A stretch of 64,000 nt of DNA from an uncultured Candidatus Saccharibacteria bacterium (GCA_964551525.1 CAZKCH010000001.1:1831-65830); one strand, 5' to 3'; counted from the first letter of the stretch, positions 15,665 to 47,527 are shown. A program made the numbers and translations. Notes: generated from the sequence alone by a model not told the origin.

Positions 15665-15670
15665 AAATAA

Positions 15671-25755: not shown

Positions 25756-25818
25756 CTCAGTTGGTAGAGCACCAGTTTTGTAAACTGGTTGTCGTCGGTT
25801 CGATCCCGACCTCAGGCT
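25746..25818 (+). tRNA. tRNA-Thr (anticodon UGU)
   Basis: Manual cloverleaf: acceptor gcctgag/ctcaggc, D-arm gctc-agttggta-gagc, anticodon stem ccagt/actgg with loop tttgtaa, T-arm gtcgg-ttcgatc-ccgac. No encoded CCA. Confidence 0.8.
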
Positions 25819-26013: not shown

Positions 26014-26041
26014 TAAATAAACAATATAAACATTTGAACCC

Positions 26042-26641: not shown

Positions 26642-27045
26642 TTAACTTTTTCCATTTTTAAAACAACTAACAATTGAAGCGGTCGCAATAAATGTTAGTT
26701 GTTAAGAATTCTGTTAATAAAACAGCGAGCGTATCATATGTCATGAACCAGTACATATCCTTGACAAAAGCAATGGAATTTTCAATAATGGGTACAGATA
26801 AGAAATGACGATTAAAAACATGATTGGACTCGAGACCGGCGGAAAAAAATAAAGAATACGCGATACAAAAGATCTGACAGAAAATACAGGGCTGTCCGCC
26901 TGTTTTTTATTCCGAAGAGAAAGATCTTTGAAAATTAAATAATTAGTAATTAGTAAATAGTATTGGTAAGGATTAAGGATCAGTAAAAGCAACGCCCTCG
27001 CGATGAAAAATTATTAAATTTTTCATTTTGCGGGGTTCTCAGAGT

Positions 27046-27067
27046 TGCTCCGCTCTTATTTTTTCCC
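27046..27067 (+). promoter_or_regulatory. 16S leader half of rRNA processing stem
   Basis: ggttctcagagttgctccg is the reverse complement of cggagcaactctgagaa at 30413-30431. Confidence 0.6.
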
Positions 27068-27611
27068 TTCGGGGAAGAATTATTTTTGAGGATTTGATCC
27101 TGGTCCAGGATGAACGCTGGCGGCGTGGATAAGGCATGCAAGTTGAACGCTCACCTGATTTTTCGCAAGAAAAGTTGGGTGGGAGTGGCAGATTGGTTAG
27201 TAACACGTGGGTAACTTACTCCGAGGACAGGAATAGTCCGCCGAAAGGCGGGGTAATTCCTGATAGAAATGAGGGGTCGCAAGACATTCTCATTTAAAAC
27301 CCGTCCCGCAAGGGATAGGGGCCACGGAAAAGGCCTGCGGCCTATCAGCTAGTTGGTGAGGTAACGGCCCACCAAGGCAATGACGGGTAGGGGAAGTGAG
27401 AGCTTGTTCCCCAACAAAGACACTGAAACATGGGTCTTACTCCTACGGGAGGCAGCAGTCGAGAATATTCGGCAATGGGGGAAACCCTGACCGAGCGACG
27501 CCGCGTGAGTGAAGAAGGCCTTCGGGCTGTAAAACTCTTTTTTGAGGGAAGAATCCCGAGCGCAAGCGAGGGATGACGGTACCTCAAGAATAAGGGGATG
27601 CAAATTCTGTG

Positions 27612-28481
27612 GTCGATCCGCTCAAAATCGTAAGCGAAGATCGACGGGCGCAGAATAGTCGTGGTAACACGGCTTAAGTAAACTTGGCTCATATGCTGGA
27701 AGCTATTTAAGAAGCGGCATTAGCCATCGGGCTAATTTTCTTAATAGTAATCAGCAGGGAAGTTCGATATAATGGAGAAATGAACAAAAAACAAAGAGAC
27801 ATAATTCTCGGAACATTATTGGGAGACGGGTGGATCGAAAAACAAGGGTCCATTCGTTTCAAACAATGTCTAAAGCATAAAGAATATATCTTTTGGCTAT
27901 ACGGGGAATTAAAAAATCTTTGTCGTAGTTCTCCCACACAAAGACGAGACAATAAACAATGGTATTTCCAAACCAGAAGCAATGACGAAACGCGCTTTTA
28001 TCGATCTATTTTTTATCGGGGTGTTAAAAAACGAGTCCCGAAAAATATAGGAAAATTGATAAAATCTGCACTAAGTTTGGCTATCTGGTTCATGGATGAT
28101 GGAACAATAGATTGGAGAGAAAAAAGTCATTATGCTTTCCGTCTAACTACAAATTGTTTCTCGATGAGCGATAACCGACTATTAATTGAAATGCTGAAAA
28201 AGAGATTTGGCGTTAAAACAACGCTCCAAACAACATTGATTAGAGGAAAAAGATATCCAAGGATATATATCGGCAAAGATGGAAGAGGAAAATTCGCAAA
28301 TCTAATAGAACCATTCGTATTAAATTGTTTTCGTTATAAATTACCTCCATTTCTTCGTAACCCCTCAGAGACTGTTCGGTGATGAACCGACGTTAACGGT
28401 GAAACATATTATCCGTTAAAATACGCCGAGCCCCGTTTCAAAAAAACGGGTGATGGTATAGTCCAATAAAATTATTTATTA
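27612..28481 (+). mobile_element. 16S intron 1 (probable group I) inserted just upstream of the GCCAGCAGCCGCGG block
   Basis: About 870 nt with no 16S homology, between ...gcaaattctgtg and gccagcagccgcgg. Contains an HE ORF and the shared aacggtgaaa motif. Confidence 0.6.
27780..28382 (+). CDS. LAGLIDADG homing endonuclease (two-motif)
   Basis: ILGTLLGDGWIEK and IWFMDDGTID LAGLIDADG motifs. Located entirely within the 16S insertion. Confidence 0.75.
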   Translation: MNKKQRDIILGTLLGDGWIEKQGSIRFKQCLKHKEYIFWLYGELKNLCRSSPTQRRDNKQWYFQTRSNDETRFYRSIFYRGVKKRVPKNIGKLIKSALSLAIWFMDDGTIDWREKSHYAFRLTTNCFSMSDNRLLIEMLKKRFGVKTTLQTTLIRGKRYPRIYIGKDGRGKFANLIEPFVLNCFRYKLPPFLRNPSETVR

Positions 28482-29032
28482 GCCAGCAGCCGCGGTAAGA
28501 CAGAATCCCCAAGCGTTATCCGGATTTACTGGGCGTAAAGCGTCTGTAGGCGCCTTGTTGCATCTTTGGTTAAATTTTCGGGGCTCAACCCTGAAGCTGC
28601 CAAAGACATGGACAGGGTAGAGGGCGTTAGGAGTTGACGGAACGGTCGGTGTAGGGGTGAAATCCATTGATATCGACCGGAACACCAAAAGCGAAGGCAG
28701 TCAACTAAGACGACCCTGACGCTGAAAGACGAAAGCGTGGGCATAAAAAAGGATTAGATACCCTTGTATTCCACGCCCTAAACCATGGAGACTGGCTTCT
28801 TGAAGTGTCGACCCTTCAGGTGGCGAAGCTAACGCGTTAAGTCTCCCGCCTGGGAAGTACGATGGCAACATTAAAACTCAAAGGAATAGACGGGGACTCA
28901 CACAAGCGGTGGATCATGTGGCTCAATTCGACAACAAACGAGGAACCTTACCAGGGCTAGAAACCGTAGCGGACAGCTTACTGAAAAGCGAGCTTTCTCA
29001 CAAGGACCGCTATGGCAGGTACTGCATGGTTG

Positions 29033-29857
29033 ATCCCTAAGCTATTGCTGCTTGGGATACGACCCTTTTCGCCGTAAGGCGAATCGAAAAACCAGCTCAT
29101 AACGGCGAACCCCTAACCAAAAACTTATGGTAAAATGAACTATAAGAACTAAGGCGGGCAATGCCGTGGGAAGTACGAACACTAATTTTTGCAATTTCTT
29201 TAAGGGAGAAGAGAATGCTTATATTCTCGGCCTTTGGTGCGCTGATAGTTATTGGTGGTCAAGTTCAGTAGGATTAAGCAATACCAATCCATATCTGATC
29301 GAAAGAACTAAAAAGTTTTTAAGAAACTTTTTCCCGGAAGTAAGAATAAAATTTAACAGAAACCATATTTTTGTTAATAGCAGGCCATTATTAAGAGACT
29401 TCGTTATTGCTAAAAACAATCTTGATCGTCTTAAAAAACCAGGTATGATTAAGGCCTATTTCGCCGGCCGTTTTGACGGCGATGGTTCTGTAGACAAGGA
29501 TTTCAGAAAAGATTGCCGAATAGTTTATGGCAAGCTGAACGAAGCAGAAATGGATAAAAAGCTATTAAGAAGAATGGGAATCAGAAAAACAAAAATATAC
29601 TATTACAAAAGCGCAAAAACATTTTGCTTATATATATCTCGTTACGAAACGAAAAAATTCTAGACAATATTTATATTCATTCTACAAAGTTGCAAAAATT
29701 AGTGTCCGTACCCCGTAGAGACTTAACTCTCGCCAAGGACCAATTAAGAGAGTTAGATGGCGGAAAAACCAAAAACCGTCATAAAACGCTGGCCTCCGCA
29801 TAATTATATGCGGAAGATGGCATAGTCCATACTACAAGTAATTGTAAGAAAATATGG
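29033..29857 (+). mobile_element. 16S intron 2 (probable group I) inserted in the CATGGTTG|TCGTCAGC region (near E. coli position 1050)
   Basis: Exon sequence catggttg ... tcgtcagcaggtcccgtgagg is restored after removing about 825 nt. Contains an HE ORF and ccgtgggaag / aacggcgaa motifs. Confidence 0.6.
29166..29663 (+). CDS. LAGLIDADG-type homing endonuclease
   Basis: YFAGRFDGDGSV motif and a degenerate first motif YILGLWCADS. Located within the 16S insertion. Confidence 0.6.
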   Translation: MGSTNTNFCNFFKGEENAYILGLWCADSYWWSSSVGLSNTNPYLIERTKKFLRNFFPEVRIKFNRNHIFVNSRPLLRDFVIAKNNLDRLKKPGMIKAYFAGRFDGDGSVDKDFRKDCRIVYGKLNEAEMDKKLLRRMGIRKTKIYYYKSAKTFCLYISRYETKKF

Positions 29858-30412
29858 TCGTCAGCAGGTCCCGTGAGGGTCTCCCTTAAATGGGGAAACC
29901 TGCGCAACCCTTACTCTGTGTTTTAAATGTCACAGGGAACTGCCCGGGATAACTGGGAGGAAGATGAGGATGACGCCAAATCAGCATGGTCCTTGATGCC
30001 CTGGGCCGCACACGTGATACAATGGAGCCGACAATGGGTTTGCCAAGCCGTAAGGCGGAGCTAACCCCATCAAACGACTCCTTAGTTCGGATTGAGGGCT
30101 GAAACTCGCCCTCATGAAGCCGGAATCGCTAGTAATCGGGAATCAGCTATGTCCCGATGAATATGTTCCTGAGTCTTGTACTCACCGCCCGTCACGTGAG
30201 ACGAGCCGGGAGTGGCCGAAGGCGCCTGTAAGGGCGACTAAGCCAAACTCGGTGAGAAGCACGAAGTCGTAACAAGGCACGCGTAGCGGAAGCTGTGCGT
30301 GGATCATTACTTTTTTTCTAGACTTTTTGTCTAGGAGCGTCGATCATAGTTGAAAATTGAGAATTCTATTTTCAACTGCGGACAATTGACTGGAATGTCT
30401 TTAAACTACAGT

Positions 30413-33904: not shown

Positions 33905-34468
33905 ATGCCTATTTCTGCCAAATTAGCCAAGTTTTTGAGCCAAAACGAAATTAAATTTGAGGAAATTGAACATCGCACCGTTTATACTGGGCTGGACAAA
34001 GCCGCCACTTTAAGGGTAAAACCAAGCTTGATTGCCAAAACCATTGTTGTAAAATCAGGCAAGGAGTTGGCAATGGGAATACTGGCCGCTAATAGAAATG
34101 TGAATAAAAAGAAATTGGCCAAGGTCAGTAAATTAAAGAATCTTGATTTCATTTCCGAAAAGCTGATGAAATCCAAATTCGTTGGATTCAAAGTCGGCGC
34201 CCTGCCGCCTTTCGGCTTGCTTTTCAAAGTAACGTCGTTTATTGATAGGGGACTGGCTAAGGAAAAATTCGTTTACGCCAGTTCGGGCAACTACGAGATT
34301 TCTTTGAAAATATCGCCGAAAATCCTGGAAAAATTAGGGGCAGCGAAAGCAGATTTCTCTGTCGCAAAGAAAATAAACAAATTTAGCCTTCCGAAGAAGG
34401 TTGCAAAACCAAAACCAAAGAAGAATCCGCCTCGTCGGCAGGCGTCGTTTCCGCGCGCCCGCCGATGA
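33905..34468 (+). CDS. YbaK/ProX-family aminoacyl-tRNA deacylase domain protein with basic C-terminal tail
   Basis: GALPPFG motif and the YbaK fold length. Lys/Arg-rich tail. Confidence 0.6.
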   Translation: MPISAKLAKFLSQNEIKFEEIEHRTVYTGLDKAATLRVKPSLIAKTIVVKSGKELAMGILAANRNVNKKKLAKVSKLKNLDFISEKLMKSKFVGFKVGALPPFGLLFKVTSFIDRGLAKEKFVYASSGNYEISLKISPKILEKLGAAKADFSVAKKINKFSLPKKVAKPKPKKNPPRRQASFPRARR

Positions 34469-34676: not shown

Positions 34677-34830
34677 CAGTAGTAGTTTTTTAGAATTTAG
34701 AGTTTAGTATTTAGAGTTTCATTTCCCAGGGGTGCCGGATCACCGCAGAGCGGGATCCCGTCTTACGGGATCACCGCGAAGCGGGACTCCGCTACGCGGA
34801 GGTGGCCAATCGGGACAAAAAATACAAAAA

Positions 34831-35079
34831 ATGTATACTGTTTATATCTTAAGAAGTTTAAAATCTAAAAGGTTCTATATTGGACAAACAAATAATATCG
34901 CGGATAGATTAAGAAGACATAATCGAGGATTGGTCAAATCAACAAAATGGTTTATACCTTGGGAAATAGTCATAACAGAAAACTTTAATAATAGAAGCGA
35001 CGCATATAAACGCGAACAAGAGATCAAAAAATTTAAGTCCGGAATATTGTTTAAAAAAATAATTACCAGGGATGGCTGA
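34831..35079 (+). CDS. GIY-YIG nuclease domain protein (small, standalone)
   Basis: YTVYILRS...KRFYIGQTNNIADRLRRHN is the GIY-YIG core. Likely start is the ATG at 34831 (the track ORF starts at 34732 inside a direct-repeat region). The 3' end overlaps tRNA-Tyr by 14 nt. Confidence 0.55.
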   Translation: MYTVYILRSLKSKRFYIGQTNNIADRLRRHNRGLVKSTKWFIPWEIVITENFNNRSDAYKREQEIKKFKSGILFKKIITRDG

Positions 35080-35138
35080 GCGGTTAAGGCGCTGGTCTGT
35101 AAAACCAGTCTAGGTAGGTTCAACTCCTACTCCCTGGA
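35066..35138 (+). tRNA. tRNA-Tyr (anticodon GUA), type I (short variable arm), C1:G72
   Basis: Acceptor ccaggga/tccctgg, D-arm with GG, anticodon stem ctggt/accag with loop ctgtaaa, 5-nt variable loop, T-arm gtagg-ttcaact-cctac. Confidence 0.65.
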
Positions 35139-35167
35139 TCAACTACTACCAAACAAAAGATCGCCAA
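35136..35167 (+). repeat. direct repeat copy 1 (att-like) at tRNA-Tyr 3' end
   Basis: ggatcaactactaccaaacaaaagatcgccaa. A near-identical copy lies at 37752-37783. Confidence 0.55.
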
Positions 35168-35282
35168 GAAGGCGATTTTTTGATATGCAACATCATTAAA
35201 TTAGTTCGCTAGACTTAGTTGGTTATCTGTGCTAATTTTCTTATAGTAAACCTTCGATGTTTCACGGTTCAAGGAGGACCAT

Positions 35283-35912
35283 ATGAAACTCAAACTTTCC
35301 GACCTGATCGCTCTTTTGTACTTTGCGGCTATAACCGCATTCATCTTCCTGGCCAAGGACACTTTCATCTATCTGACCAAGACCTATCCTTACCCGATGG
35401 GTTTTATCAAGGTCGGGCTACTGGCCACCTTCGGCGAATGCCTGAAATACAGACTGACCAATCACAAATGGATCCCGTACAAGATCTGTCTTCGTTTCCT
35501 TGTCTGGGGGCTCTTTGGCATCTGGTTCGCCGCTGCCTTCCCGTATTCTGACGGAGGCGTTGTCGCCCTCGACAACGGCGGGCTATGGCCTGGCGCCTCG
35601 GCGCTATCCAAAAGCGCCTGGATCAACATCCTCGGCGGTTACGCCTTCTTCATGATGTTCATCCACTACTGGATGGATACGATGATTGCCGAAGGACCGT
35701 GCTGGCCATGGAAGATTTTCGGGACACCACAGTCGGTAAAGTGGGCGAAGATTGTCTTCATCGCCATGTTCGTCTGGTGGTTGCCGGCCCATACCTTCAC
35801 CTTTTCCCAACCGCCGGAATGGCGAGTCGTGATCGCCGCCTATCTTTCGGTCAGCCTCGGCCTGATCCTAGCCTTTGCATCAGGTTTCGAGGTGAGGAAA
35901 ACTATCACCTAA
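35283..35912 (+). CDS. polytopic membrane protein, foreign (high-GC) origin
   Basis: By eye about 52-55% GC versus about 40% around it, with GC-rich codon usage. Preceded by a canonical SD (aaggagg, 5-nt spacer), unlike other genes here. 5-6 TM helices. Confidence 0.5.
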   Translation: MKLKLSDLIALLYFAAITAFIFLAKDTFIYLTKTYPYPMGFIKVGLLATFGECLKYRLTNHKWIPYKICLRFLVWGLFGIWFAAAFPYSDGGVVALDNGGLWPGASALSKSAWINILGGYAFFMMFIHYWMDTMIAEGPCWPWKIFGTPQSVKWAKIVFIAMFVWWLPAHTFTFSQPPEWRVVIAAYLSVSLGLILAFASGFEVRKTIT

Positions 35913-36189
35913 ACAAGTAAGAGACGCATCGTAACGGTGCGTCTCTTTACTTACTTAAATTCTAAACAGGTTCTAACGTCGTCCCGTAGGCAGGACCAAA
36001 AAACTTTATTAGCGACTAAGTGATTGAGTGATTAGGACAATCGCCTCTATGCCGTTTCTCAGGCTGGGCAGTTTTTTTGACCAAAAATATGATATAATTA
36101 ATTTAATAAAAGAGTTGATGAACACGTTCGTGAAATTAAGGGCATTTTAACATAACACTTGACGATCACTACTTGACAACATATCATCT

Positions 36190-36567
36190 ATGATATATAC
36201 TGATAACATAGATTATAAAGTAAATTTTTACAGAAACTCTCAAACCAGTAAAAGTCCTGTTTTAGAGTATATAAACAATCTAAGTCATAAAGAAAGGGCA
36301 AAAATCTTAAAATACGTTGAATTCCTAAGGGAACACAAGGGGTATCTAGACGAACCATATTCAAAACACGTCAAGGGAAAAATTAGAGAATTAAGGATAG
36401 ATTTTGGCAAAAACAGATTCAGAATCTTCTACTTTACATTCATCAAGAAAACGATAGTTCTGCTTCACGCGTTCTTGAAGAGAACCGAAAAAACGCCAAT
36501 TAAAGAAATCAAGAAAGCTGAAGAAAATTATTACGACGTCTTAAATAATCCGAAATTATATGAATAG
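36190..36567 (+). CDS. type II toxin, HigB/RelE-like (phage Gp49-like addiction module killer)
   Basis: About 125 aa. Gp49/HigB-like blocks (KIRELRIDFGKNRFRIFYF...IVLLHAFLK). Overlaps the downstream HTH gene by 8 nt. Confidence 0.6.
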   Translation: MIYTDNIDYKVNFYRNSQTSKSPVLEYINNLSHKERAKILKYVEFLREHKGYLDEPYSKHVKGKIRELRIDFGKNRFRIFYFTFIKKTIVLLHAFLKRTEKTPIKEIKKAEENYYDVLNNPKLYE

Positions 36568-36874
36568 AACAAAGAAAATACAAAAAGCAGTTGATTTTCA
36601 AGAATACTTGAAAAGTCAATTGAAAAATCCCGAGGTCAAGAAACACTATGACGAATATGGTAAACGCCTGGAAATCGCTTACCAGATTTTAAGGTTGCGC
36701 AAACAGAAAAAAATGTCGCAAGTGGAATTGGCCAAGAGAATCGGCACCAAACAAAGCAACATCGCCCGCCTAGAAACGGGCCAGCAAAATTTTACTACCG
36801 AAACCCTGCAGAAAATAGCTTTGGTCTTTAACCGCGATCTCAGAATAGAATTCTGCTCGCCAAACAAGTTCTAA
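36560..36874 (+). CDS. HTH XRE-family antitoxin (HigA-like)
   Basis: MSQVELAKRIGTKQSNIARLETGQQNFT is a classic Cro/C1-type HTH. Confidence 0.7.
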   Translation: MNRTKKIQKAVDFQEYLKSQLKNPEVKKHYDEYGKRLEIAYQILRLRKQKKMSQVELAKRIGTKQSNIARLETGQQNFTTETLQKIALVFNRDLRIEFCSPNKF

Positions 36875-36909
36875 CCCATTCGTCGTTTCCTAACTCCTCA
36901 GGGCAAGCT

Positions 36910-36958
36910 GTCGTCCCGTAGGCAGGATACGAGTTTATTAGCAATTAGTTATTAGTTT
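36910..36958 (+). repeat. intergenic repeat unit (gtcgtcccgtaggcagga ... tttattagcaattagttattag)
   Basis: Same unit at 35978-36036. Related copies at 37737-37754 and 38600-38625. Confidence 0.5.
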
Positions 36959-36970
36959 TTAGCACTGACG

Positions 36971-37010
36971 AAACCGCCTTTTTATTAGGGCGGTTTTTTG
37001 GTATAATTTA
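36971..37010 (+). promoter_or_regulatory. hairpin/T-run terminator fused to extended -10 promoter (TGGTATAAT), leaderless start
   Basis: aaccgcc...ggcggtt stem, tttttt, tggtataat, then ATG 6 nt later. The same architecture (GGTTTTTTGGTAnAGT) recurs at 37821-37877, 38896-38937 and 39402-39437. Confidence 0.55.
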
Positions 37011-37013
37011 GAT

Positions 37014-37643
37014 ATGAGAACATATACTTTTATTGATGCCTCCAATTTATTTTACGGCGGGGAAAAGAATTTAGGATGGAAAATCGACTATCAAAAGCTT
37101 TTGTATTATTTAAAAGAAAAATATGGAGTTTCTCGGGTCTTATATTTTGGCGGTATAGAATTGCATGGTTTTAAGTTTGATTATCTCAAAGAGGAAACTG
37201 TGCCGGTTGAAAAAGCGGAAAACTATCTTTCCTCATTAGTCAAAGAGAAGGGTGATAAATTTACTGAAGCAATATTGTTATTAATTAACCGACATCTACA
37301 ACGAGCTCGTTTTTACTCAAAACTACAGAAATTCGGCTATGATCTCCATCTGAAGCCGGTTAAACTTTATGAACAGGAAGATGGCACGACTAAAAGAAAA
37401 GCGAACTGCGATGTCGATATGACATTCCATCTAATGAAGGAAAAAGATAATTTTGACAGAGCGCTTATTCTTTCCGGCGACGGAGACTTTTTACCAGTTT
37501 TGAAATTCCTAAAACAAAATGGTAAAGAGATAATCGTTCTGGCTCGTGGTTCGCGAACCGCCAAAGAAATCAGGCAATTTGCTGGTAGTAATTTTCGAGA
37601 TTTTGAATATCTAAAATATCTTCTAAAAATGGACTTGAAATAA
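37014..37643 (+). CDS. NYN-domain (LabA/PIN-like) predicted ribonuclease
   Basis: FIDASNL N-terminal Asp block and a LSGDGDFLPVL block typical of NYN/LabA-like proteins. Confidence 0.6.
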   Translation: MRTYTFIDASNLFYGGEKNLGWKIDYQKLLYYLKEKYGVSRVLYFGGIELHGFKFDYLKEETVPVEKAENYLSSLVKEKGDKFTEAILLLINRHLQRARFYSKLQKFGYDLHLKPVKLYEQEDGTTKRKANCDVDMTFHLMKEKDNFDRALILSGDGDFLPVLKFLKQNGKEIIVLARGSRTAKEIRQFAGSNFRDFEYLKYLLKMDLK

Positions 37644-37751
37644 AAACGAAGCGGACTCGTATAGAATCCGCTCCACGTTTAGTAGTTTCATTATACCTCG
37701 ACTGGCAACAGTGTCAACCTCCTAAAAAGGTCTAATGTCGTCTCGTAGAGA

Positions 37752-37783
37752 GGATCAACTACTACCAAACAAAGAATCGCCAA
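37752..37783 (+). repeat. direct repeat copy 2 (att-like)
   Basis: ggatcaactactaccaaacaaagaatcgccaa matches the tRNA-Tyr 3' flank (35136-35167) at 30 of 32 positions. Confidence 0.55.
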
Positions 37784-37820
37784 ACCCGCCCGCAACACTT
37801 CGTGTAGCGATGTGGGTAGG

Positions 37821-37877
37821 GGGGCGGCCTGCCCCGTAGTGAACTTGTTCTACTACAGGGTTTTTTGGTAGAGTACA
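37821..37877 (+). promoter_or_regulatory. hairpin/T-run + extended -10 (TGGTAGAGT) module
   Basis: ggggcggcctgcccc and gtagtgaac..gttctactac hairpins, tttttt, ggtagagt, then ATG 7 nt later. Confidence 0.5.
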
Positions 37878-37881
37878 ATAT

Positions 37882-38508
37882 ATGACTAGAAAAATTCATA
37901 AGAACTATTTTGATATAGTAATACTGCCAACAAAAGAAATTGGAGATTATTCTATTGCTCTAAGTAAACGGCTGCATAAATATGGATCAAATTCAATTTT
38001 AGGCAGAAAATCCTTTTTGCCCCATATTTCTCTTTATCACATTTCGATAAAAAAGAGGGATTTCGGGAATTTTATTGCTGAAATAGAGAAGATAACAAAT
38101 GATTTTAAGACGGGGCAGCTGGAAATCAAAGACCTGATATTATGGAAAGGCCATCGTTCGGTTCTTCTAATGACGAACAAACCGAAGTGGCTAAAAAATC
38201 TACACCTAAAAATAATAAAAGGGACATTAAAATATTTTAACTGGGATTACGGTATAGAGAAACTATGGAATCTTGATCACTGGTCTAAACTTATGCAGAA
38301 AAACATAAAACAATACGGAACGCCATTGGTAGGGAGATATTTTATGCCACACATCACATTAGGTGTATTAAATGATAAGAAGGGAGTAGTAAAGTTTTTT
38401 AACAAACTGAAGCTTAAAAAATATAAATTCAATCCTGTTTGTATCTACGTTTGCGAAATTGGCGAAGATCATACTTGTCAAAAAATAGTAAGAAAGATTC
38501 GTTTTTAA
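37882..38508 (+). CDS. 2H phosphoesterase superfamily protein (LigT/CPDase-like)
   Basis: Two H-x-S/T-x motifs (PHISLYH, PHITLGV) with appropriate spacing. Confidence 0.6.
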   Translation: MTRKIHKNYFDIVILPTKEIGDYSIALSKRLHKYGSNSILGRKSFLPHISLYHISIKKRDFGNFIAEIEKITNDFKTGQLEIKDLILWKGHRSVLLMTNKPKWLKNLHLKIIKGTLKYFNWDYGIEKLWNLDHWSKLMQKNIKQYGTPLVGRYFMPHITLGVLNDKKGVVKFFNKLKLKKYKFNPVCIYVCEIGEDHTCQKIVRKIRF

Positions 38509-38640
38509 CTTAGATTGTTCTTAAACGGGTCAACCCTTCAGTGTGATTCAGGGCCGGCTCTTTGATATGACTCAGGGCAAGTAGAGAAGGTCATGAAAGT
38601 GGCTAAGTGATTAAGTGGTTGAGTGGCCAAAACCAGAGAT

Positions 38641-38669
38641 TTGACAGCGATTATCTAAAGAATATAATG
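38641..38669 (+). promoter_or_regulatory. canonical sigma70-type promoter (TTGACA-17-TATAAT)
   Basis: ttgacagcgattatctaaagaatataat, 8 nt upstream of the Zn-ribbon ORF ATG. Confidence 0.5.
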
Positions 38670-38676
38670 GAAACGT

Positions 38677-38850
38677 ATGATGATAATTAAGTGCAATATA
38701 TGTAAAAAGACGATAAAGGGCAATGATCCCGTAACGGCAAGCGGGGGATTTGCCTCGAGAGTTGAATTATGCGAAAAATGCGGTTTGCCGATAATCAAAT
38801 TCTTGAAAAAACATAAATTTATAGCGGGCGGGACGCCCGATATATCGTAA
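38677..38850 (+). CDS. small zinc-ribbon protein (57 aa), not in ORF track
   Basis: MMIIKCNICKKT...VELCEKCGLP carries two CxxC pairs. Consensus promoter immediately upstream. Confidence 0.4.
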   Translation: MMIIKCNICKKTIKGNDPVTASGGFASRVELCEKCGLPIIKFLKKHKFIAGGTPDIS

Positions 38851-38895
38851 TCGCTATTAAAGAAAAACGATAGAGATTTCATCGCGGAATTTATC

Positions 38896-38937
38896 TCGTA
38901 TAAACCCTGTATTTACGCGGGGTTTTTTGGTAGAGTA
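38896..38937 (+). promoter_or_regulatory. hairpin/T-run + extended -10 (TGGTAGAGT) module
   Basis: Stem around ccctgtatttacgcgggg followed by ttttttggtagagt. Confidence 0.45.
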
Positions 38938-38954
38938 AAAAATAGAAATAAACC

Positions 38955-39368
38955 ATGAATATTAAACTAGCGACAGAAATAATTTTTCTACTCTGCATCA
39001 CGACTTTAGTTGTGACCATAATATTATCCAAATTATTTAGAGTAGAGCTTAAAAACACCGACCCCTCGGATATACCACCGGCGATGTGGTATATCGCAAT
39101 AATATCCGTAGTTTTGTTAGCTGCCGAAGGTACGGCGTGGTATTTTGAATCGCCAGAAACGGTTCCTAATGCGAAAAACGGTTTTCTGTTTGGACTTATG
39201 GCTGCCACCGTTGGTTTTATTAGCGACATACTTCTTTTAATTCCGCATAAGAATGGATCTAATATTTTGTTGGGCTATTATACTAAACCATGGTATTGGG
39301 CGGCATTTATCCTAATTTTAATCGTCTGCACCTTAGTTGGTTTTATAATGGCCAAAAGGGGCATATAA
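38955..39368 (+). CDS. hypothetical 4-TM membrane protein
   Basis: Four hydrophobic helices. No recognisable domain. Confidence 0.35.
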   Translation: MNIKLATEIIFLLCITTLVVTIILSKLFRVELKNTDPSDIPPAMWYIAIISVVLLAAEGTAWYFESPETVPNAKNGFLFGLMAATVGFISDILLLIPHKNGSNILLGYYTKPWYWAAFILILIVCTLVGFIMAKRGI

Positions 39369-39401
39369 TCCTTCGATGAAGTTTATGGTGAGCTTGTCGA
39401 A

Positions 39402-39437
39402 CCGCTCAGGACAAAAAGGCGGTTTTTTGGTAAAGTA
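39402..39437 (+). promoter_or_regulatory. hairpin/T-run + extended -10 (TGGTAAAGT) module
   Basis: ccgc..gcgg stem, tttttt, ggtaaagt, then ATG 7 nt later. Confidence 0.45.
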
Positions 39438-39443
39438 AGCAAT

Positions 39444-40040
39444 ATGATAAAGGCAGCGATATTCGACCTTAACGGAATATTTATTCAAGGCCCAAGATTG
39501 AGCGATAGATTCAAGGAGATTTTTGGTATTGAAACAAAAGATTTCTTGCCCGTGTTAAAAGAGATCATGGCAAAGATAAGAAAACCAAATGCGGGGAGTG
39601 CTTTTAGCCATTGGAAACCATATTTGGAGAGATGGAATGTCAGTCTGACGGAAGAACAGTTCCTTGATTTTTGGTTCGGTGCTGAAAAAGAAATTCCAGA
39701 ATTAATTGAATTGGCAAAACAGATAAAAACGAAAGGTGTTAAAGTGTTTATCCTGTCAAATAATTTTGCCGAAAGAGCCGATTATTATAAAAAGAGTTCT
39801 CCGTTCTTAACAGAAATTCCTGATAAAGTTTATTATTCTTGGCAAACGGGTTTCGTCAAACCGGACCCACAAGCATTCAAGAATCTGTTAACCGAGAACA
39901 ATCTTGAACCCGAGGAATGTATTTATTTTGATGATTTAGAAGAAAATATTAAAGTGGCAAACGACTTAGGAATGAAGGCCTTCCTTTATAATAACGTTAT
40001 CGGCTTAGAGGAAGCCCTGAGGAACAATCGGGTAATCTAA
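39444..40040 (+). CDS. HAD-superfamily hydrolase (subfamily IA-like phosphatase)
   Basis: AIFDLNGIF (motif I variant DxN), ILSNN (motif II-like) and YFDDLEENI (motif IV). Confidence 0.55.
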   Translation: MIKAAIFDLNGIFIQGPRLSDRFKEIFGIETKDFLPVLKEIMAKIRKPNAGSAFSHWKPYLERWNVSLTEEQFLDFWFGAEKEIPELIELAKQIKTKGVKVFILSNNFAERADYYKKSSPFLTEIPDKVYYSWQTGFVKPDPQAFKNLLTENNLEPEECIYFDDLEENIKVANDLGMKAFLYNNVIGLEEALRNNRVI

Positions 40041-40141
40041 TTCATCAAACAGGTTTCCAGCCTACGGCTGGTCAACCGAAGCAAGGGGCGAGCTGTCAAT
40101 CCCGTATTCAAAGCTTTAATATAAAGAAACAAACCGTATTT

Positions 40142-40906
40142 ATGAAATACTATCCAACTTTATTGCACGAGAAAGCCGCAAATAAAATGGTGGAGATTTT
40201 CAGTAGAGATAAATCGGTAATGAGCATCTTACTGACTTGTTCTTGCGCTAGGGGAAAGGCGTCGAAGGACTCCTGTCTGGACATATGCTTAATTGTAAAA
40301 AACAAGAATGATATTAAAAATATCAAAAGCAAATTTAATAAAGTTTATGGCCGAGATAAAATATTAAAGGGGCTTTCGAGGGCAGGGAAATACTCTCACA
40401 TAGATATAGAAATAACTGACGGAAAGATTATTCCCGTCGAAAGGGGATGGACCTCCGGTCCCGATGAATACGAATTAGAGATCGGAAACGTTTTCATCTA
40501 TTCAATGGTTTTATTCGACAGAAATAATCATTTTAAGAGACTAAGAAAGAACTATACCCCTTATTATTACGAGGGCCTGAGAAGAAAAAGATTAAAAGAA
40601 GTGAAGGAATTCATGTTTAACAACCTGGGCCACGTCCCTCTGCTCGTTAAAAGAAAACTATACTTCCAGGCCTTTAAAAGGTTTTATGATGCCACCAGGG
40701 AATTCTTGCAGGCGCTCTTTATAGAGAACAAAAAATACCCGATTGCTTATGATAAATGGGTAAAAGACCAACTAACAGAAATACTCGATAAGCCCGAACT
40801 TTACAAGGAATTCGTGGCCTTGTATGAGATTAAAAAACTGGAAAGCAACGAACTGGCCCTAAAAGCCGATAAGCTTAAAAAATTAGCAAAAAGATATTTA
40901 CCTTAA
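40142..40906 (+). CDS. pol-beta-superfamily nucleotidyltransferase, kanamycin nucleotidyltransferase (ANT(4')/KNTase)-like
   Basis: CSCARGKASKDSCLDICLIV matches the GS...SD.D minimal NTase signature. The 254-aa length and helical C-terminal domain resemble KNTase. Confidence 0.5.
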   Translation: MKYYPTLLHEKAANKMVEIFSRDKSVMSILLTCSCARGKASKDSCLDICLIVKNKNDIKNIKSKFNKVYGRDKILKGLSRAGKYSHIDIEITDGKIIPVERGWTSGPDEYELEIGNVFIYSMVLFDRNNHFKRLRKNYTPYYYEGLRRKRLKEVKEFMFNNLGHVPLLVKRKLYFQAFKRFYDATREFLQALFIENKKYPIAYDKWVKDQLTEILDKPELYKEFVALYEIKKLESNELALKADKLKKLAKRYLP

Positions 40907-40957
40907 GTTATATCGAAGGACTTGCCCTGAGCCGGGTCGAAGGGATAGAATAATACA

Positions 40958-42073
40958 ATGACTACTGAAGAACGGCTTGATCTCGTCAAACAAGTAGGGG
41001 AGGAGATTACCACCGAAGAAGAGCTGCGGCGGCTTTTAGAAACCGAAAAGAACTTGGTTGCCTATGACGGCTTTGAGCCCTCGGGCCAGATTCACATTGC
41101 CCAAGGTCTTTTACGCGCCATCAATGTCAACAAAATGATTAAGGCCGGCATCAAGTTTAAAATGCTGGTGGCTGACTGGCATGCGATGTGTAATGACAAA
41201 ATGGGCGGCGATCTGGAAAAAATTAAAATCGTGGGCCAATATTTCATTGAGGTTTGGCGGGCTTACGGCATGGATTTGAAAAACGTGGAGTTTGTTTGGG
41301 CTTCGGACTTAGTTAAAAACAGCAAATATTGGGAATTAGTTTTAAAGGTGGGCCGGACTAATAAACTGGCGCGCTTTATCAGAACCGCGGAATTCATGGG
41401 CCGAGAAGCAGCCGCGGAAACCTTGTCAGCGGCTCAGTTGTTTTATCCCTGCATGCAAATTGCTGATATTTTTACTCTGGGCGCCAAGATCACTCAATTA
41501 GGCATGGACCAGCGCAAAGTTAATATGTTGGCCCGGGAGATCGGATCCCAGCTCGGTTTTTGGAAACCAATAGTAATTTCACACCACATGCTCATGGGTT
41601 TGGATCAACCCCCCTCCGCCAATGCTTCGGAGGGCGAGGCCGCCATTGATAAAACCGCCAGGACCATAGCCCTCAAGATGTCTAAATCGAATCCTGATAA
41701 TGCGATTTTTATGACTGATTCAAAAGAAGAGATTGAAAGAAAAATTAACAAGGCCTGGTGCCCGGAAGGGGAGAGCCAAGAAAACCCGATTCTGGAATAC
41801 TGCCGTTATATAATTTTTGAATCCCTGGACCGACTTGGAACCAAAGAGATAAAAATTGAAAGACCGGAAAAATTCGGCGGCACCATTACGGTCAAATCCT
41901 ATGCTAAATTAGAAACGCTTTTCAGCCAGAAACAAATCCATCCCCAAGATCTGAAAAAAACAGTCGCCGAACTCTTAAACAAACTAATAGCGCCGGTCAG
42001 AGAACACTTTATCAAGGACAAGAGAGCGAAAAAACTGCTTGAACAAGTGACAGGTTTTGCCGTAACAAGATAA
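40958..42073 (+). CDS. tyrS: tyrosine--tRNA ligase, archaeal/eukaryotic type
   Basis: Strong collinear similarity to Methanocaldococcus-type TyrRS: YDGFEPSGQIHIAQG (HIGH), KMSKS, IERPEKFGGTITVKSYAKLETLFSQKQIHPQDLKKTVAELLNKLIAPVRE. Confidence 0.85.
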   Translation: MTTEERLDLVKQVGEEITTEEELRRLLETEKNLVAYDGFEPSGQIHIAQGLLRAINVNKMIKAGIKFKMLVADWHAMCNDKMGGDLEKIKIVGQYFIEVWRAYGMDLKNVEFVWASDLVKNSKYWELVLKVGRTNKLARFIRTAEFMGREAAAETLSAAQLFYPCMQIADIFTLGAKITQLGMDQRKVNMLAREIGSQLGFWKPIVISHHMLMGLDQPPSANASEGEAAIDKTARTIALKMSKSNPDNAIFMTDSKEEIERKINKAWCPEGESQENPILEYCRYIIFESLDRLGTKEIKIERPEKFGGTITVKSYAKLETLFSQKQIHPQDLKKTVAELLNKLIAPVREHFIKDKRAKKLLEQVTGFAVTR

Positions 42074-42154
42074 GTGGTATAATATTTTAATACCCAAAGG
42101 TCGACAATAATAGTGATTAGTTATTAGAAATTAGTTTTTTAACTTTTTACAAAT

Positions 42155-42925: not shown

Positions 42926-43805
42926 TCAAAAATACTCTTAGATTTAAACATTCCTATGAATACCATTCTTTATACTCTCACCAAAAGAAGCGGCTAATTC
43001 CTTAGGATTTTTTATTGCCTAAGCGACCGCTTCGAAGCGGTTTTTTCTTTTCTCGCGCCGGCATTGACGCTGAATAAAAAATTGGCGGTAAAACCGGATT
43101 GAGAACCAAAAAACGAAAGAAAAAGAACGGACTTTGACAACTTAATAAAATTCTAGCTAATTAAGTAAAAACTCCTTAAATTTACAGACGAATCTGGTGA
43201 ATCTAAGGAGGGTAAGAAATTGTGGTTACAACAGGTTGATGGCGGATGCCTTGGAAAGTCGAGGCGACGAAGGACGTGGCGTGACTGCGATAAGCTCCGG
43301 GGAGGTGTCAAGCAACCCGTGAACCGGAGATGTCCGAATCTGGAAACAGGGCCGCGCAAAACGCGGTCGACCCCGAGCGCAAGTGAGGGGTAGCGTACCT
43401 GGGGAAGTAAAACCTTTCAGTACCCAGAGGAAAATAAAACAATGTTTCGTGTTTTACACGAGATGATTCCCTTAGTAGCGGCGAGTGAAAAGGGAAATAG
43501 CCTAGAGTTCTAAGCTTCGCAAGAAGCTTGGAGCAGTTAAAAGAGAGCGACGCCTGAAGTTTTCCCCTTTATCCCGAGAGAAATCGAGGGACAAGGAGAA
43601 AACTTTGGAAAGAGTAAAAAAATTGATTGTTAGCCAAAGTCCCCTGGAAAGGAACACCAAAGAGGGTAATAGTCCCGTAGGCGAAAACGATCAATCTCTT
43701 AGTCTCTTAGTCCCGCAAGGGACAAATCTTAAGTACTATAGGGCATGATAAATCTATAGGAAGTCGGCTGAACTACTTTCAAGCCAAGGCTAAATACTCG
43801 ACTTT

Positions 43806-43844
<39 letters not shown>

Positions 43845-45279
43845 CAGCCCGGCGAGGGCGATGAAATAGTACCTGAAACCATCTAACCTACAAAGAGTCG
43901 GAGCCCCACAGAGCGCAAGCTTTTGCGGGGTGACGGCGTACTTTTTGGAGAACGAGCCAACGAGTTGTTGTGCATAGTTGTCTAACCCCGTTAAACGGGG
44001 GAAGGCAAAGCGAAAGCAAGCGTTAATAGCGCGACTAAAACTGTGCACCCCAGACCCGAAGCCAAGCGAGCTTGCCAGCGTCAGGGTGAATCCCGCCGAA
44101 GGGCGAGAAGAAGCCCGTACCTGTGAGCCGTGCAATACTCTAGGACGAACGGTGGCACGAAGAGAAAACCTAAACGAGCTTGGTAATAGCTGGTTCTTCC
44201 CGAAATAGCTTTTGGACTAGCTCCGCCGTATTATATTTTTCAGGGGTAGAGCACTGAAAAGAATATCGTGGCTTTTAGCCAGGTATTCTTATCAAACTCC
44301 GAATACTGAAAAATTCAGGCGGAAGTAAGAACCCGGGCGCTAAGGTCCGGGCTCAAAAGGGAAACAGCCCAGACCTTCATCTAAGGCCCCCAAGTTTAAA
44401 CTAAGTGCTAGGAAGGAAGTGATTTTCCTATGATAGTCAGGAGGTGAGCTTAGAAGCAGCTACCCTTTAAAAAGTGCGTAACAGCTTACTGATTAAGGAA
44501 TTTCGCACCAAAGATTAACGGGGCTCAAGTTTAACGCCGAAGATAAGGGCCCGCCCACATCTGCAAAGTTGTGGCGGGCGGTAGGGAAGCGTCCTTTGTT
44601 CAGCGAAGCCCCTCCGTAAGGTCGGGGTGGAGAACAAGGGAGTGAGAATGTTGGCATGAGTAACCGCAATCCGGGTGAGATCCTCGGACACCGAAAGCCC
44701 AAGATTTCCTTGGCAATGATTTTCAGCCAGGGGTTAGGCGGCCCTAACACTGCGACCAAATGGCCTCAGTGGATGGACAGCCGGTTAATATTCCGGCCCT
44801 TCGGTTGTTTTTCAAAAGGGTGACGCAATCAAAGTTCTTGATAGGATTATTGGATTTCCGAGAGTCGAGATTTATCTCGACCGTTTCAAGAATCAGATTG
44901 CCAAGAAAAACCCTGAGATTTAAAACAACCGGATCCGTATCGCAAACCGACACAGGCAGGCAGGTCGAGTAGACCAAGGTGAACGGGTGAAAGCTCCTGA
45001 AGGAACTCGGCAAAAAAGCTACCCGTAAGTTCGCAAGATGGGTTGCCCCGACCCGCAAGGGTTATGGGGCCGCAGCTAACGATTCCTTAGCGACTGTTTA
45101 TCAAAAACACAGGCTCCTGCTTAACTCGTAAGAGGAAATATAGGAGCCGAGACCTGACCAGTGCTGGAACGTCAAACTCGACGATTTTACCGCAAGGTAA
45201 AACTGATCGAGCTAAGCGCCAGTGAACGTCCGCTCTAACTCTGAGAGTGTTAAAGTAGCGTAACCCCTTGTCAGGTAAG

Positions 45280-46035
45280 AGATTTGCCTGTGCTCACAGC
45301 AGTGAGCAATAAATCCGGCTAATAACGGTGAAATCCTCGTTAGAGTCCCGCATCAAGGGCGGGACGTTGAAAACAAGATAATACCGTGGGAAGTCCCGTT
45401 AAACGGGACCCCGTAACGACTGACGTCGCCGATAGCTATTGGCGACCGAGATAGTAGATGCTATGATGAAATAACATTTACGGATTTAATGAAAAAAATA
45501 CTATCATATGCCGGCACTAAACAATTCTAAATCAAAGAAAAATCTACCAGTATATATTTCTGGTTATGTAGACGGGGAAGGATGCTTTAGTGTTTCCTTC
45601 TCAAAAAGAGAAAAACTGTCAGTGGGATGGGAAACAAAACCAAGTTTTGCCGTAGGGCAAAACTATGACCGATCAGAAGTAATTAAATTACTAAAGCTTT
45701 ATTTAAATTGCGGAAGTATAAGACGTGATTATTCTGACAAAACATTGAAATTCGAGGTCCGTAGTTTAAATGACCTGGTAGAAAAAGTAATTCCTCATTT
45801 TCGTCAGTACCCTTTATTATCAAATAAGCGAAAAGATTTCGATTTGTTTGTAAAAATATGCGGGCTGATGAAAAAAGAAAAACACCTTCAAAGAAGGGGA
45901 TTAAAAAAGATTGTCAATTTCGCGTATCAAATGAACGCAAGCGGTAAACGAAAATACAAAAAAGAGGAAATTACAAAAGAATTGTCTATTTGAAGATATA
46001 GTCTGCACCATAAGAAATTATGAGACAATGTGAAG
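45280..46035 (+). mobile_element. 23S intron (probable group I) in domain IV, GGGTAAG|TTCCGACC site (about E. coli 1917-1923)
   Basis: About 756 nt with no 23S homology restore the universal sequence when removed. Contains ctaataacggtgaaa and taataccgtgggaag motifs, shared with the other introns. Confidence 0.6.
45508..45993 (+). CDS. LAGLIDADG homing endonuclease
   Basis: LPVYISGYVDGEGCFSVSF is a classic LAGLIDADG motif. 161 aa, within the 23S insertion. Confidence 0.8.
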   Translation: MPALNNSKSKKNLPVYISGYVDGEGCFSVSFSKREKLSVGWETKPSFAVGQNYDRSEVIKLLKLYLNCGSIRRDYSDKTLKFEVRSLNDLVEKVIPHFRQYPLLSNKRKDFDLFVKICGLMKKEKHLQRRGLKKIVNFAYQMNASGKRKYKKEEITKELSI

Positions 46036-46568
46036 TTCTGACCCGCATGAAAGGTTTCACGACTAAGGAACTGTCTCCAGGAGTTGCCCGGTGAAAATGC
46101 AGTAGGGGTGAAGATGCCCCTTACCTGCGGCTAGACGGAAAGACCCCGAGAGCTTCACTGTAAGGTGGTATTGGATTTTGGGTTTGGATGCGTAGCGTAG
46201 TAGGGAGGATTTGAAGTCCCGTTTTTGGACGGGATGGATCCGACAATGAAACACCTATCTTTTAAACTCTCAATTCTAATTCCGCTGATGAAGCGGATAA
46301 CAGTGCCACCCCGGCAGTTTAAGTGGGGCACTTGCCTCCCAAAAAGTACTGGAGGCGTTTAAAGGTCGGCTAGCTCCGGATGGAAATCGGAGCGATAGGG
46401 CAAAGCCATAAGCCGGCTTTACTGCAAGGCGGATATGCCGCGCAGTTGGGAAACCAGAACTTAGTGAACCGATGCGTCATAGTAGAAGGCGCAAAGATCA
46501 ACAGACAAAAGTTACCTCGGGGATAACAGGCTAGTAGGGCCCGCGAGTCCACATCTACGGCCCTGTTC

Positions 46569-46601
<33 letters not shown>

Positions 46602-46730
46602 GTGAAGCAGCTCCCAAGGGTCTGGCTGTTCGCCAGTTAAAGTGGTACGTGAGCTGGGTTCAAACCGTCGCGAGACAGGTTGGTCCCTATCTACCGCAGG
46701 CGTTGAGTCTTGAGGAGAGTCTCGGACAGT

Positions 46731-47527
46731 AAATAAAATTGCTGCTTCAGAGAGTAATCTCTGATGACAAATTGGCTAATAACGGTGAAACCTTCATTGG
46801 AATTATGCGGAAAGCGTATTTTTCCGCTTGTAGGTCCAACGGAAAAATGATATGATTTTCTTGAGGACCGCATAATTTTAAATAAGGTAATACCGTGGGA
46901 AGACAAACAAAAATACCCAAAACAGATTTAGCTTATATCGCTGGTTTTTTGGACGGTGACGGAAGTGTTATAGTCCAAATGAAAAACAGAAGGCACAATC
47001 CAAGAGGATGGCGATTAATGTTCACAATCTGCTTTTATCAGGATACGCGTCATGAAAAACCGCTATCCTGGATAAAAAAGACATTAGGAATAGGTTATAT
47101 TTCTCGCCGGAAAGATGGAATTACCGAACTAAGAATTAATGGTTTTGGAAGAACCAAAGAGATTCTGGAAAATTTATCACCATATATCAAGTTTAAGAAA
47201 AAACAGGTAAACATTTTACTAACGATCTTAAAAAAGATCGTAGGCAAGAATTTTCCTGATTTGACCAGAAAACAGCGGTTAAAAATAGCAGATATGATTT
47301 ATGAATCAAGACAGTTAACCTATCAATCTGGTTGGAAAAAATTCTCTAAGTCAAAAAGGGAATTAAGAGAAAGATTGGGTTTTTAATTAAAGTTTGTCCC
47401 CGTAACGACTTTCCGCATTAATGCGGAGGATGGCATAGTTTTATACGCCATAATACGCCAACCACGCGTTCAATTTATGAACGCGCGGAAGATATAGTCT
47501 AAGCTTGTAGAAATACAAGGCAACTTG
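46731..47527 (+). mobile_element. 23S intron (probable group I) inserted in the sarcin-ricin loop (AGU|ACGAGAGGACC)
   Basis: Removing about 797 nt restores ggacagtacgagaggacc. Same conserved core motifs (ggctaataacggtgaaa, aataccgtgggaag). Confidence 0.6.
46895..47386 (+). CDS. LAGLIDADG homing endonuclease
   Basis: LAYIAGFLDGDGSVIVQ motif. 163 aa, within the 23S insertion. Confidence 0.8.
   Translation: MGRQTKIPKTDLAYIAGFLDGDGSVIVQMKNRRHNPRGWRLMFTICFYQDTRHEKPLSWIKKTLGIGYISRRKDGITELRINGFGRTKEILENLSPYIKFKKKQVNILLTILKKIVGKNFPDLTRKQRLKIADMIYESRQLTYQSGWKKFSKSKRELRERLGF

Follow-up and report, generated by a model that had tools for sequence, protein, structure and literature searches.

A probable tRNA-Tyr-anchored array of small mobile gene cassettes in a Roizmanbacteria-like bacterium

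What occupies the interval between the tRNA-Tyr gene and the tyrosyl-tRNA synthetase (TyrRS) gene in this 64,000-nt stretch of DNA (hereafter the window; GCA_964551525.1 CAZKCH010000001.1:1831-65830, deposited as an uncultured Candidatus Saccharibacteria bacterium), and how did it come to be there? An earlier note on this DNA had placed a putative genomic island at positions 35136-40110, bounded by att-like direct repeats, and had offered two readings of it, a decayed integrative element or a recombination hotspot. We find that the segment at 35139-40950 is probably, if by no means certainly, a tRNA-anchored array of eight small mobile cassettes that are exchanged at a 21-nt end motif or at the tRNA 3' end (Table 1). 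Direct observation supports this reading at several levels: the anatomy of the segment, the conservation and strand bias of the motif, its association with tRNA genes, breakpoints located at the motif, and some cassettes that are closer between genomes than the TyrRS genes are.

The variable segment fills the space from tRNA-Tyr to TyrRS with cassettes A to H, in which all open reading frames (ORFs) lie on the plus strand, and it begins at the last base of tRNA-Tyr, that is, directly 3' of the tRNA gene. The further cassette-like genes that the earlier note had seen up to about 40.1 kb are indeed there, but the boundary has to be moved, as the segment runs on to about 40950, just before TyrRS. 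A cassette opens with a copy of the tRNA trailer (an AATCGCC...GGCG-T-run terminator hairpin, often followed by a -10 box near the ATG), continues with a body of usually one ORF, and closes with the motif AAACAGGTTCTAAC(G/A)TCGTCC and a tail of about 12 nt that in many cases resembles the 3' acceptor end of the head tRNA. Pfam bears out the toxin-antitoxin pair and the NYN nuclease gene noticed before: in cassette B the gene for a Gp49/HigB-type toxin (PF05973, E 2e-23) lies upstream of, and overlaps by 8 nt, the gene for an antitoxin of the XRE-HTH type (HTH_3, PF01381, E 9e-15), the layout of HigBA, which confirms the assignment of this cassette as a predicted HigBA pair.

The motif that closes the cassettes is 21 nt long, sharply bounded and followed by a 12-nt tail. 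In two relatives (L086 and L082; L numbers denote the loci compared) modules of this kind follow most genes, with AAACAGGTTCTAAC directly behind the stop codon, then GTCGTCC and a tail such as CGTAGGCAGGA; they often continue with AAAGAATCGCC, a hairpin and GGCGGTTTTTTGGTAnAnT just ahead of the next ATG, and an insert resembling repetitive extragenic palindromic (REP) elements sometimes separates AAACAGGTTCTAAC from GTCGTCC. The four best matches of a motif hidden Markov model (HMM) in the window all fall within the tRNA-Tyr array. The 19-nt core CAGGTYCTAACGTCGTCCC matches 69 metagenome contigs with GC contents of 30-56%, at up to seven copies per 13 kb and always on the same strand within any one contig; in about 1.2 Mb around TyrRS of 80 other species it was not found, barring two short chance matches. 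A logo built from 130 unique copies displays a conserved block from -3 to +17 with a sharp edge, and this block includes the AAA that lay outside the search pattern. An ORF of at least 60 aa lies upstream of 102 motifs; its stop codon falls within the motif in 18 of these and no more than 30 nt away in 39 more (57 in total). Motifs are spaced at a median of 752 nt, and 47 of 55 inter-motif intervals have their longest ORF on the motif strand. An Rfam search (E up to 1) of 35139-40950 returned no RNA family, and we rejected an RNA-family reading of the modules on this ground. The full module had no meaningful match in annotated phage and plasmid collections, and viral contigs gave a single match (L169). 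Text searches of the literature retrieved no paper with the 13- or 15-nt core strings of the motif (10-mer matches were in unrelated papers), and searches on cassette arrays in candidate-phyla-radiation bacteria found nothing.

The link to tRNA genes extends well past the window. A co-oriented tRNA gene lies no more than 2 kb upstream of the first motif in 18 of the 34 loci with sufficient upstream sequence, which far exceeds the expectation from tRNA density, and the head tRNAs belong to six species (Asn, Tyr, Gln, His, Glu and Thr). In about 11 of 17 arrays, the 12-nt tail behind the motif finishes as the head tRNA does (Tyr: GGA; Asn: GGAGC; Gln: CGCAGC; His: 10 of 12 positions), and in L120 and L127 the motif is fused to the exact tRNA-Gln tail plus trailer. 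The motif itself resembles a tRNA T-arm (GGTTCnAA...TCC) with five extra bases, and is followed by the acceptor-like tail.

Comparison with relatives, which for the window are relatives at the level of the genus (the nearest in the protein collection has 83% TyrRS identity and sits on a 2.2-kb contig), revealed the same tRNA-Ile/Ala/Tyr...TyrRS backbone with entirely different genes. L082 (TyrRS 78% amino-acid identity) shares with the window the order 16S, PMT, YbaK-like gene, tRNA-Ile, tRNA-Ala, tRNA-Tyr ... TyrRS, but of its five small genes from tRNA-Tyr to TyrRS none is homologous to a window cassette; L086 carries about 13 other small genes ahead of TyrRS, and TyrRS, MscS and 23S are common to L083 and L084. 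With a common backbone and different content, the tRNA-Tyr-to-TyrRS interval is therefore a replaceable compartment. Short intergenic modules are nonetheless common to the window and its relatives despite the different genes, and recur around unrelated genes; window positions 39366-39413, for example, match L086 6075-6122. Three strains that are 98-100% identical (L100, L134 and L129) differ by whole cassettes, and identity stops exactly after ...GTCGTCCCA. L082 and L084 have a 152-aa cassette in common, with an identity of 96.8% across the 586 nt that end at the motif, as against 76% for TyrRS, and the HigA cassette of the window is 78.5% identical in nucleotides and 82% in amino acids to L102 3890-4275, ending at the motif, with TyrRS at 69%. 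The window's 57-aa protein (38677-38850) is 65% identical to that of L102 4362-4508 (the zf57 cassette); in L102 the HigA cassette directly abuts the zf57 cassette, and in the window the NYN and 2H phosphoesterase cassettes lie in between. A coiled-coil cassette is present in L082, L084 and L086, with different neighbours in L086.

How, then, are the direct repeats to be understood? The earlier note had reported a 32-nt sequence beginning in the last 3 nt of tRNA-Tyr with a second copy at 37752, and this holds: the copies are identical at 30 of 32 positions (94%), and the first 22 nt have two exact matches in the window and none in 100 shuffles. To judge by its sequence, the repeat appears to be an att-like duplication of the last bases of the tRNA and the trailer, and copy 1 continues into a terminator hairpin at 35160-35181 (ATCGCCAAGAAGGCGATTTTTT). 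The picture of foreign, variable DNA with an att-like duplication thus stands, but the repeats do not delimit an element, as three separate cassettes lie between them, every one closed by an end motif of its own, and five more follow beyond copy 2; nor does a single decayed integrative element account for modules that recur in other genomes around unrelated genes. Of the two earlier readings the hotspot was the better half, and this hotspot bears a specific, conserved signature in its sequence that the earlier note had not noticed. At tRNA-Asn of L111, a 43-nt repeat (39 of 43 identical) begins with the last 5 nt of the tRNA and spans its terminator, and the second copy lies 969 nt downstream, directly behind a canonical motif and tail, bracketing one cassette. 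Since the same architecture is present at an independent locus, the repeat in the window would be a regular by-product of the cassette system. Partial tRNA 3' ends are also duplicated behind tRNA-Tyr and tRNA-His in L082, L125 and L113, where the copy starts in the T-loop, comprises at least 16 nt and lies 117-145 nt downstream, and about 15 nt of tRNA tail are duplicated in L120.

The composition of the segment varies from one cassette to the next. The gene at 35283-35912, which had been singled out as anomalous, is an outlier (GC 0.533, GC content at third codon positions [GC3] 0.71): GC3 is 0.38-0.54 in the 41 other ORFs that are at least 100 aa long and belong neither to the array nor to the rRNA genes, and the genes from 36190 to 40906 have mostly low GC3 (0.32-0.50). 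Its AGGAGG is the sole Shine-Dalgarno sequence among 40 gene starts inspected in the window; many others have a TATAAT-like box a few bases ahead of the ATG, as would be expected of leaderless transcripts. Homologues of the protein reach at best 56-65% identity, are drawn from several phyla, and have housekeeping genes as neighbours (genome GC 36-55%); the homologue search proposed earlier could name no donor lineage.

In the mechanism that we propose, cassettes would be gained, lost and swapped among genomes through recombination at the motif or the tRNA 3' end, and insertion beside the tRNA would duplicate its last bases and trailer to give the 32-nt repeat. The resemblance of motif plus tail to T-arm plus acceptor end suggests a recombinase that may bring the cassette site together with a genuine tRNA gene, at its T-arm and 3' end. 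We infer that exchange is site-specific and performed by a recombinase encoded elsewhere, and that the cassettes of the window, with their mostly degenerate motifs, are older acquisitions.

Several findings weigh against the proposal of a mobile cassette array. As the earlier note had it, no integrase is at hand: none of about 50 window ORFs tested against Pfam is a tyrosine or serine recombinase (no Phage_integrase, no IntI), the only transposase-like match being a Y1_Tnp domain at 14939-15664, and across 69 loci no family of proteins was seen to recur next to the arrays. A small tyrosine recombinase that adjoins the motif in L148 was rejected as the linked enzyme, as six loci encoding homologues lack the motif. 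Breakpoints are not uniform, falling at the motif/tail junction (L100/L134, L120), in the T-loop (L082, L125, L113) or at the very end of the tRNA (the window, L111), and no circular cassette contig was found. Of the window's motifs only one is canonical throughout; a 34-nt insert interrupts a second, and degenerate copies make up the rest. An exact 19-mer served to collect the motif set, and the apparent conservation within the 19 searched positions is therefore partly inflated; the contigs that bear the motif are mostly without established taxonomy, and agreement of tail and head tRNA is limited to about two thirds of the arrays. As to the L148-type recombinases themselves, they form a family of more than 1100 proteins of about 200 aa, the top matches being 65-74% identical; in L163-L168 (contigs of GC 31-54%) such ~200-aa tyrosine recombinases stand among MqsRA, RelB, ParE/MazE and HEPN/MNT genes, in what looks like another kind of variable region rich in toxin-antitoxin genes.

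The lack of a recombinase linked to the arrays would be explained if the locus were a hotspot of homologous recombination, with RecA-type swaps after DNA uptake running through the conserved flanks and the 60-100-nt modules, and with the motif serving expression (termination, definition of the transcript end or a read-through stop). The modules are long enough as homology and carry terminator hairpins and -10 boxes, stop-codon-rich repeats stand behind several of them, breakpoints fall at varying points inside them, and hotspots without recognisable mobile elements are common in bacteria (Oliveira et al. 2017, PMC5635113). Against this reading, the 21-nt block is conserved over contigs of GC 30-56% and six tRNA species, with a sharp edge and without a conserved hairpin, as one would sooner expect of a DNA site bound by a protein than of a terminator; its tails mimic the head tRNA, to the point of fusion with the exact tRNA-Gln tail in L120 and L127; and one cassette that is 97% identical where TyrRS is 76% argues for transfer across a divergence at which homologous recombination is inefficient. 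We regard homologous recombination as the main rival explanation, though a rather unlikely one. A different reading starts from the tRNA: the arrays could be the debris of serial integrase-carrying, tRNA-targeting elements (phages, satellites or tycheposon-like islands), each of which left its cargo and an attR-type partial tRNA once integrase and backbone had been deleted. The position beside a tRNA, the att-like repeats and the partial tRNA 3' ends behind tRNA-Tyr and tRNA-His in L082, L125 and L113 speak for it, and the same logic has been described for Prochlorococcus islands (bioRxiv 10.1101/2020.12.28.424599). Moreover, a 7.6-kb island (L127 128-7746) is inserted exactly at the 3' end of tRNA-Gln and absent from L120, with flanks that are 100% identical; by eye its genes include a 507-aa large serine recombinase-like protein and restriction-modification functions (a C5 DNA methyltransferase-like and an Mrr-like nuclease gene), and in L169 the end of a prophage adjoins motif plus tail, so that other mobile elements appear to use the same sites. 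Random decay would not, however, produce units that are mostly single ORFs at a median spacing of 752 nt with the motif often at or in the stop codon; integrase fragments were not noticed in the arrays examined, the left part of each 'attR' is the same 21-mer whatever the cargo or tRNA species, and strains differ by whole single cassettes, all of which makes such debris an improbable source.

Of the known systems, an integron array without its integrase (a cluster of attC sites lacking integron-integrases, CALIN), with the modules as attC sites, comes to mind from the co-oriented, mostly single-ORF rows, the site-like element at or in the stop codon, the small accessory and toxin-antitoxin cargo and the cassettes common to unrelated arrays. 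The TTCTAAC of the motif is near the attC R'' consensus RYYYAAC, sometimes with a stop codon inside, and three rare modules pair GGTTCTAAC with GTTAGAACC, two of which, with a terminal stem of 9 bp, fold better than shuffled sequences. In typical modules, among them the one folded from the window, the R' partner is missing and folding does not surpass that of shuffles (z +0.7 to +1.5), on which basis the attC-hairpin reading was rejected; GTTAGAAC lies downstream in only about 3 of 193 motif-like matches (R' GTTRRRY is missing in about 190 of 193). It is sequence that is conserved here, a 21-nt block with a tRNA-like tail, and not the structure of an attC hairpin; a tRNA takes the place of attI/intI, many cassettes have their own terminator and -10 box, several their own promoter-like boxes, no IntI was found, and the link to tRNA 3' ends with tRNA-like tails is no integron feature. 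We hold a CALIN to be very improbable indeed. The pdif (Xer-dependent) modules of Acinetobacter plasmids likewise are small modules, often of toxin-antitoxin or accessory genes, between short sites, moved presumably by a host-encoded recombinase, and their sites are 28 nt long with two inverted 11-nt arms in alternating orientation. Small modules with short conserved end sites and a recombinase presumably encoded elsewhere are the point of likeness; the motif described here differs in being non-palindromic, chromosomal and tRNA-linked, with all copies per locus in direct orientation. Prochlorococcus tycheposons and tRNA-targeting islands are seeded at tRNA genes, have partial-tRNA or att repeats, push older arrivals away with newcomers and leave integrase-less remnants (bioRxiv 10.1101/2020.12.28.424599). 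The array resembles them as a variable island at a tRNA gene with an att-like repeat and no integrase, but each of its units is a single gene of about 0.3-2 kb and is marked by the same 21-mer irrespective of the tRNA, the repeat comprises only 3 nt of tRNA plus trailer (typically tens of nt in tycheposons), and no integrase-bearing parent element was seen. The hotspots of PMC5635113 share high turnover between core genes near tRNA and rRNA genes without an integrase, but have no shared inter-gene signature, whereas here a specific motif delimits units in many contigs.

Table 1. The cassette array and its flanks; positions are counted from the first letter of the window.
Feature	Position	Strand	Description
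16S rRNA gene	27090-30314		with insertions
Two membrane glycosyltransferase-like genes		-	between 16S and the YbaK-like gene
YbaK-like editing gene	33905-34468		followed by tRNA-Ile, tRNA-Ala and a small GIY-YIG ORF
tRNA-Tyr (GTA)	35066-35138	+	head and anchor of the array; no CCA encoded; ARAGORN; Rfam tRNA 58.9 bits
Direct repeat, copy 1	35136-35167	+	last 3 nt of tRNA-Tyr (GGA) and 29 nt of trailer
Cassette A	35139-35995	+	ORF 35283-35912, 209-aa membrane protein, matches no Pfam family
Cassette A, parts			AGGAGG 35272-35277; terminator hairpin 35915-35952
Cassette A, end			canonical motif AAACAGGTTCTAACGTCGTCC 35964-35984 (motif HMM E 3e-10); tail CGTAGGCAGGA 35985-35995
Cassette B	35996-36927	+	HigB-type toxin 36190-36567; HigA antitoxin 36560-36874
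Cassette B, parts			stop-codon-rich AGTGATT repeat 36011-36036; sigma-70-like promoter 36173-36201
Cassette B, end			motif split by 34-nt insert: AAACAAGTTCTAAC 36862-36875, holding the HigA stop codon; GTCGTCC and tail 36910-36927
Cassette C	36928-37754	+	NYN-domain gene 37014-37643 (Pfam E 5e-19)
Cassette C, parts			terminator and -10 box (GGCGGTTTTTTGGTATAAT) 36971-37007; bidirectional terminator 37646-37676
Cassette C, end			degenerate motif and tail AAAAAGGTCTAATGTCGTCTCGTAGAGAGGA 37724-37754 (motif HMM E 0.045)
Direct repeat, copy 2	37752-37783	+	directly behind motif and tail of cassette C; head of cassette D
Cassette D	37755-38630	+	ORF 37882-38508, probable 2H phosphoesterase, under the Pfam cut-off
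Cassette D, parts			hairpin and -10 box (TTTTTTGGTAGAGT) ending 37879; degenerate end module from 38523 (AAACGGGTCAACCC...); stop-rich repeat 38598-38628
Cassette E	38631-38918	+	ORF 38677-38850, 57-aa zinc-ribbon-like protein; perfect TTGACA-16-TATAAT promoter 38641-38668
Cassette F	38919-39417	+	ORF 38955-39368, 137-aa membrane protein
Cassette F, parts			terminator and -10 box 38919-38936; REP-like element 39370-39414
Cassette G	39418-40110	+	HAD hydrolase gene 39444-40040 (Pfam)
Cassette G, parts			terminator and -10 box 39418-39436; degenerate end module 40046-40109 (CAAACAGGTT...GTCAATCCCGTATTC; motif HMM weak, E 6)
Cassette H	40111-40950	+	ORF 40142-40906, nucleotidyltransferase-like, 254 aa, GC3 0.44; inverted REP-like piece 40920-40943
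TyrRS, archaeal-type	40958-42073	+	conserved right anchor; synteny with relatives resumes here (TyrRS, MscS-like, 23S)
MscS-like gene			after TyrRS
23S rRNA gene	43219-46735		after the MscS-like gene
5S rRNA gene	47855		23S-to-5S region ends at 47963

In and around the array, two kinds of small repeat are present. Periodic 7-8-nt repeats rich in TAG, TGA and TAA (AGTGATTn or TTAGnnn), with stops in several frames, come after tRNA-Ala, several cassette ends and TyrRS (34688-34714, 36011-36036, 36936-36963, 38598-38628 and 42108-42148), and similar ones are present in L082, L086, L096 and L100. REP-like pieces (CCTTCGAyGCGrCTCAGGrC) occur at 36876-36909, 38530-38590, 39370-39414 and 40920-40943, and also in L086, L084, L096, L102, L126 and L134; their insertion points are TAAC/GTCGTCC or CGTAGG/CAGGA, i.e. 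inside the motif or tail, so that the end site seems to tolerate insertions at these two points. On the minus strand at 37690-37717, beside the terminator at 37646-37676, a perfect TTGACA-16-TATAAT promoter reads into the NYN gene from its 3' end and could drive an antisense RNA. The core genome of the window has a LigT/2H phosphoesterase of its own (2522-3073, E 2e-22), from which the copy in cassette D is very divergent. The gene of cassette H was not found beside TyrRS in any relative examined.

The host appears to belong to the candidate phyla radiation and to be Roizmanbacteria-like. Its TyrRS, of the archaeal type, is no more than about 72% identical to that of any of 80 species representatives, a large number of which bear the name Candidatus Roizmanbacteria or Microgenomates, and its nearest metagenomic relatives are at 75-83%. 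The rRNA operon is split, with about 12.9 kb of protein and tRNA genes separating 16S from 23S. Two insertions in 16S each hold a LAGLIDADG ORF (27780-28382 and 29166-29663; Pfam), 23S is about 600 nt longer than the model and holds an ORF (45508-45993) that is LAGLIDADG-like by eye, as is another (46895-47386) between 23S and 5S. At L086 6781-7205, 2 kb upstream of the real TyrRS, a 41-codon ORF like the TyrRS N-terminus (74% nucleotide identity to window 40957-41025) is followed by a T-box leader (Rfam, 100 bits).

Two other genes of the window were considered as components of the system and rejected. The 82-aa GIY-YIG ORF (34831-35079, Pfam E 7e-16) overlaps the 5' end of tRNA-Tyr, and six Roizmanbacteria loci (L012, L028, L035, L039, L051 and L059) have homologues (38-47% identity) near a gene for tRNA or tmRNA, directly upstream of and co-oriented with it in at least three of the six; homologues were found in none of the motif-bearing loci. 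The hairpin repeat GCAGAGACCCGTTCTCTGC stands on either side (14900-15720) of the gene for a low-GC 241-aa protein with an IS200-like Y1 transposase domain (14939-15664, E 3e-10), with two further copies at 59259 and 59296; gene and hairpins have the look of a REP-associated transposase accompanied by REPs of its own, and the hairpins bear no relation to the motif. Just upstream of 16S, at 25746-27090, tRNA-Thr is followed by two fragments like tRNA 3' ends (~25860-25885 and ~25990-26015) and a low-GC methyltransferase gene (26042-26641, GC3 0.33); a spacer at 26678-26770 resembles, by eye, L082 4917-4995 within the L082 array, and the region may be a second, small cassette site.

The array in the window may belong to something wider, a hitherto undescribed site-specific capture of single genes in candidate-phyla-radiation bacteria, in which a T-arm-like 21-nt site with a tRNA-like tail, a recombinase encoded in trans and tRNA genes as docking sites would together build integron-like arrays; we put this forward as a tentative idea, plausible but short of an even chance. 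The genomes of these bacteria are tiny, and little is understood of the way in which the bacteria come by accessory genes. If exchange is site-specific, the 21-nt marker would make arrays findable by a text search and give a handle on the flexible gene pool; it would also provide a concrete target for finding the recombinase through co-occurrence, and possibly a new docking system for genetic tools in organisms that are hard to manipulate. If the motif is an expression signal, it would still be a widely conserved regulatory element without a description in Rfam or in the literature searched.

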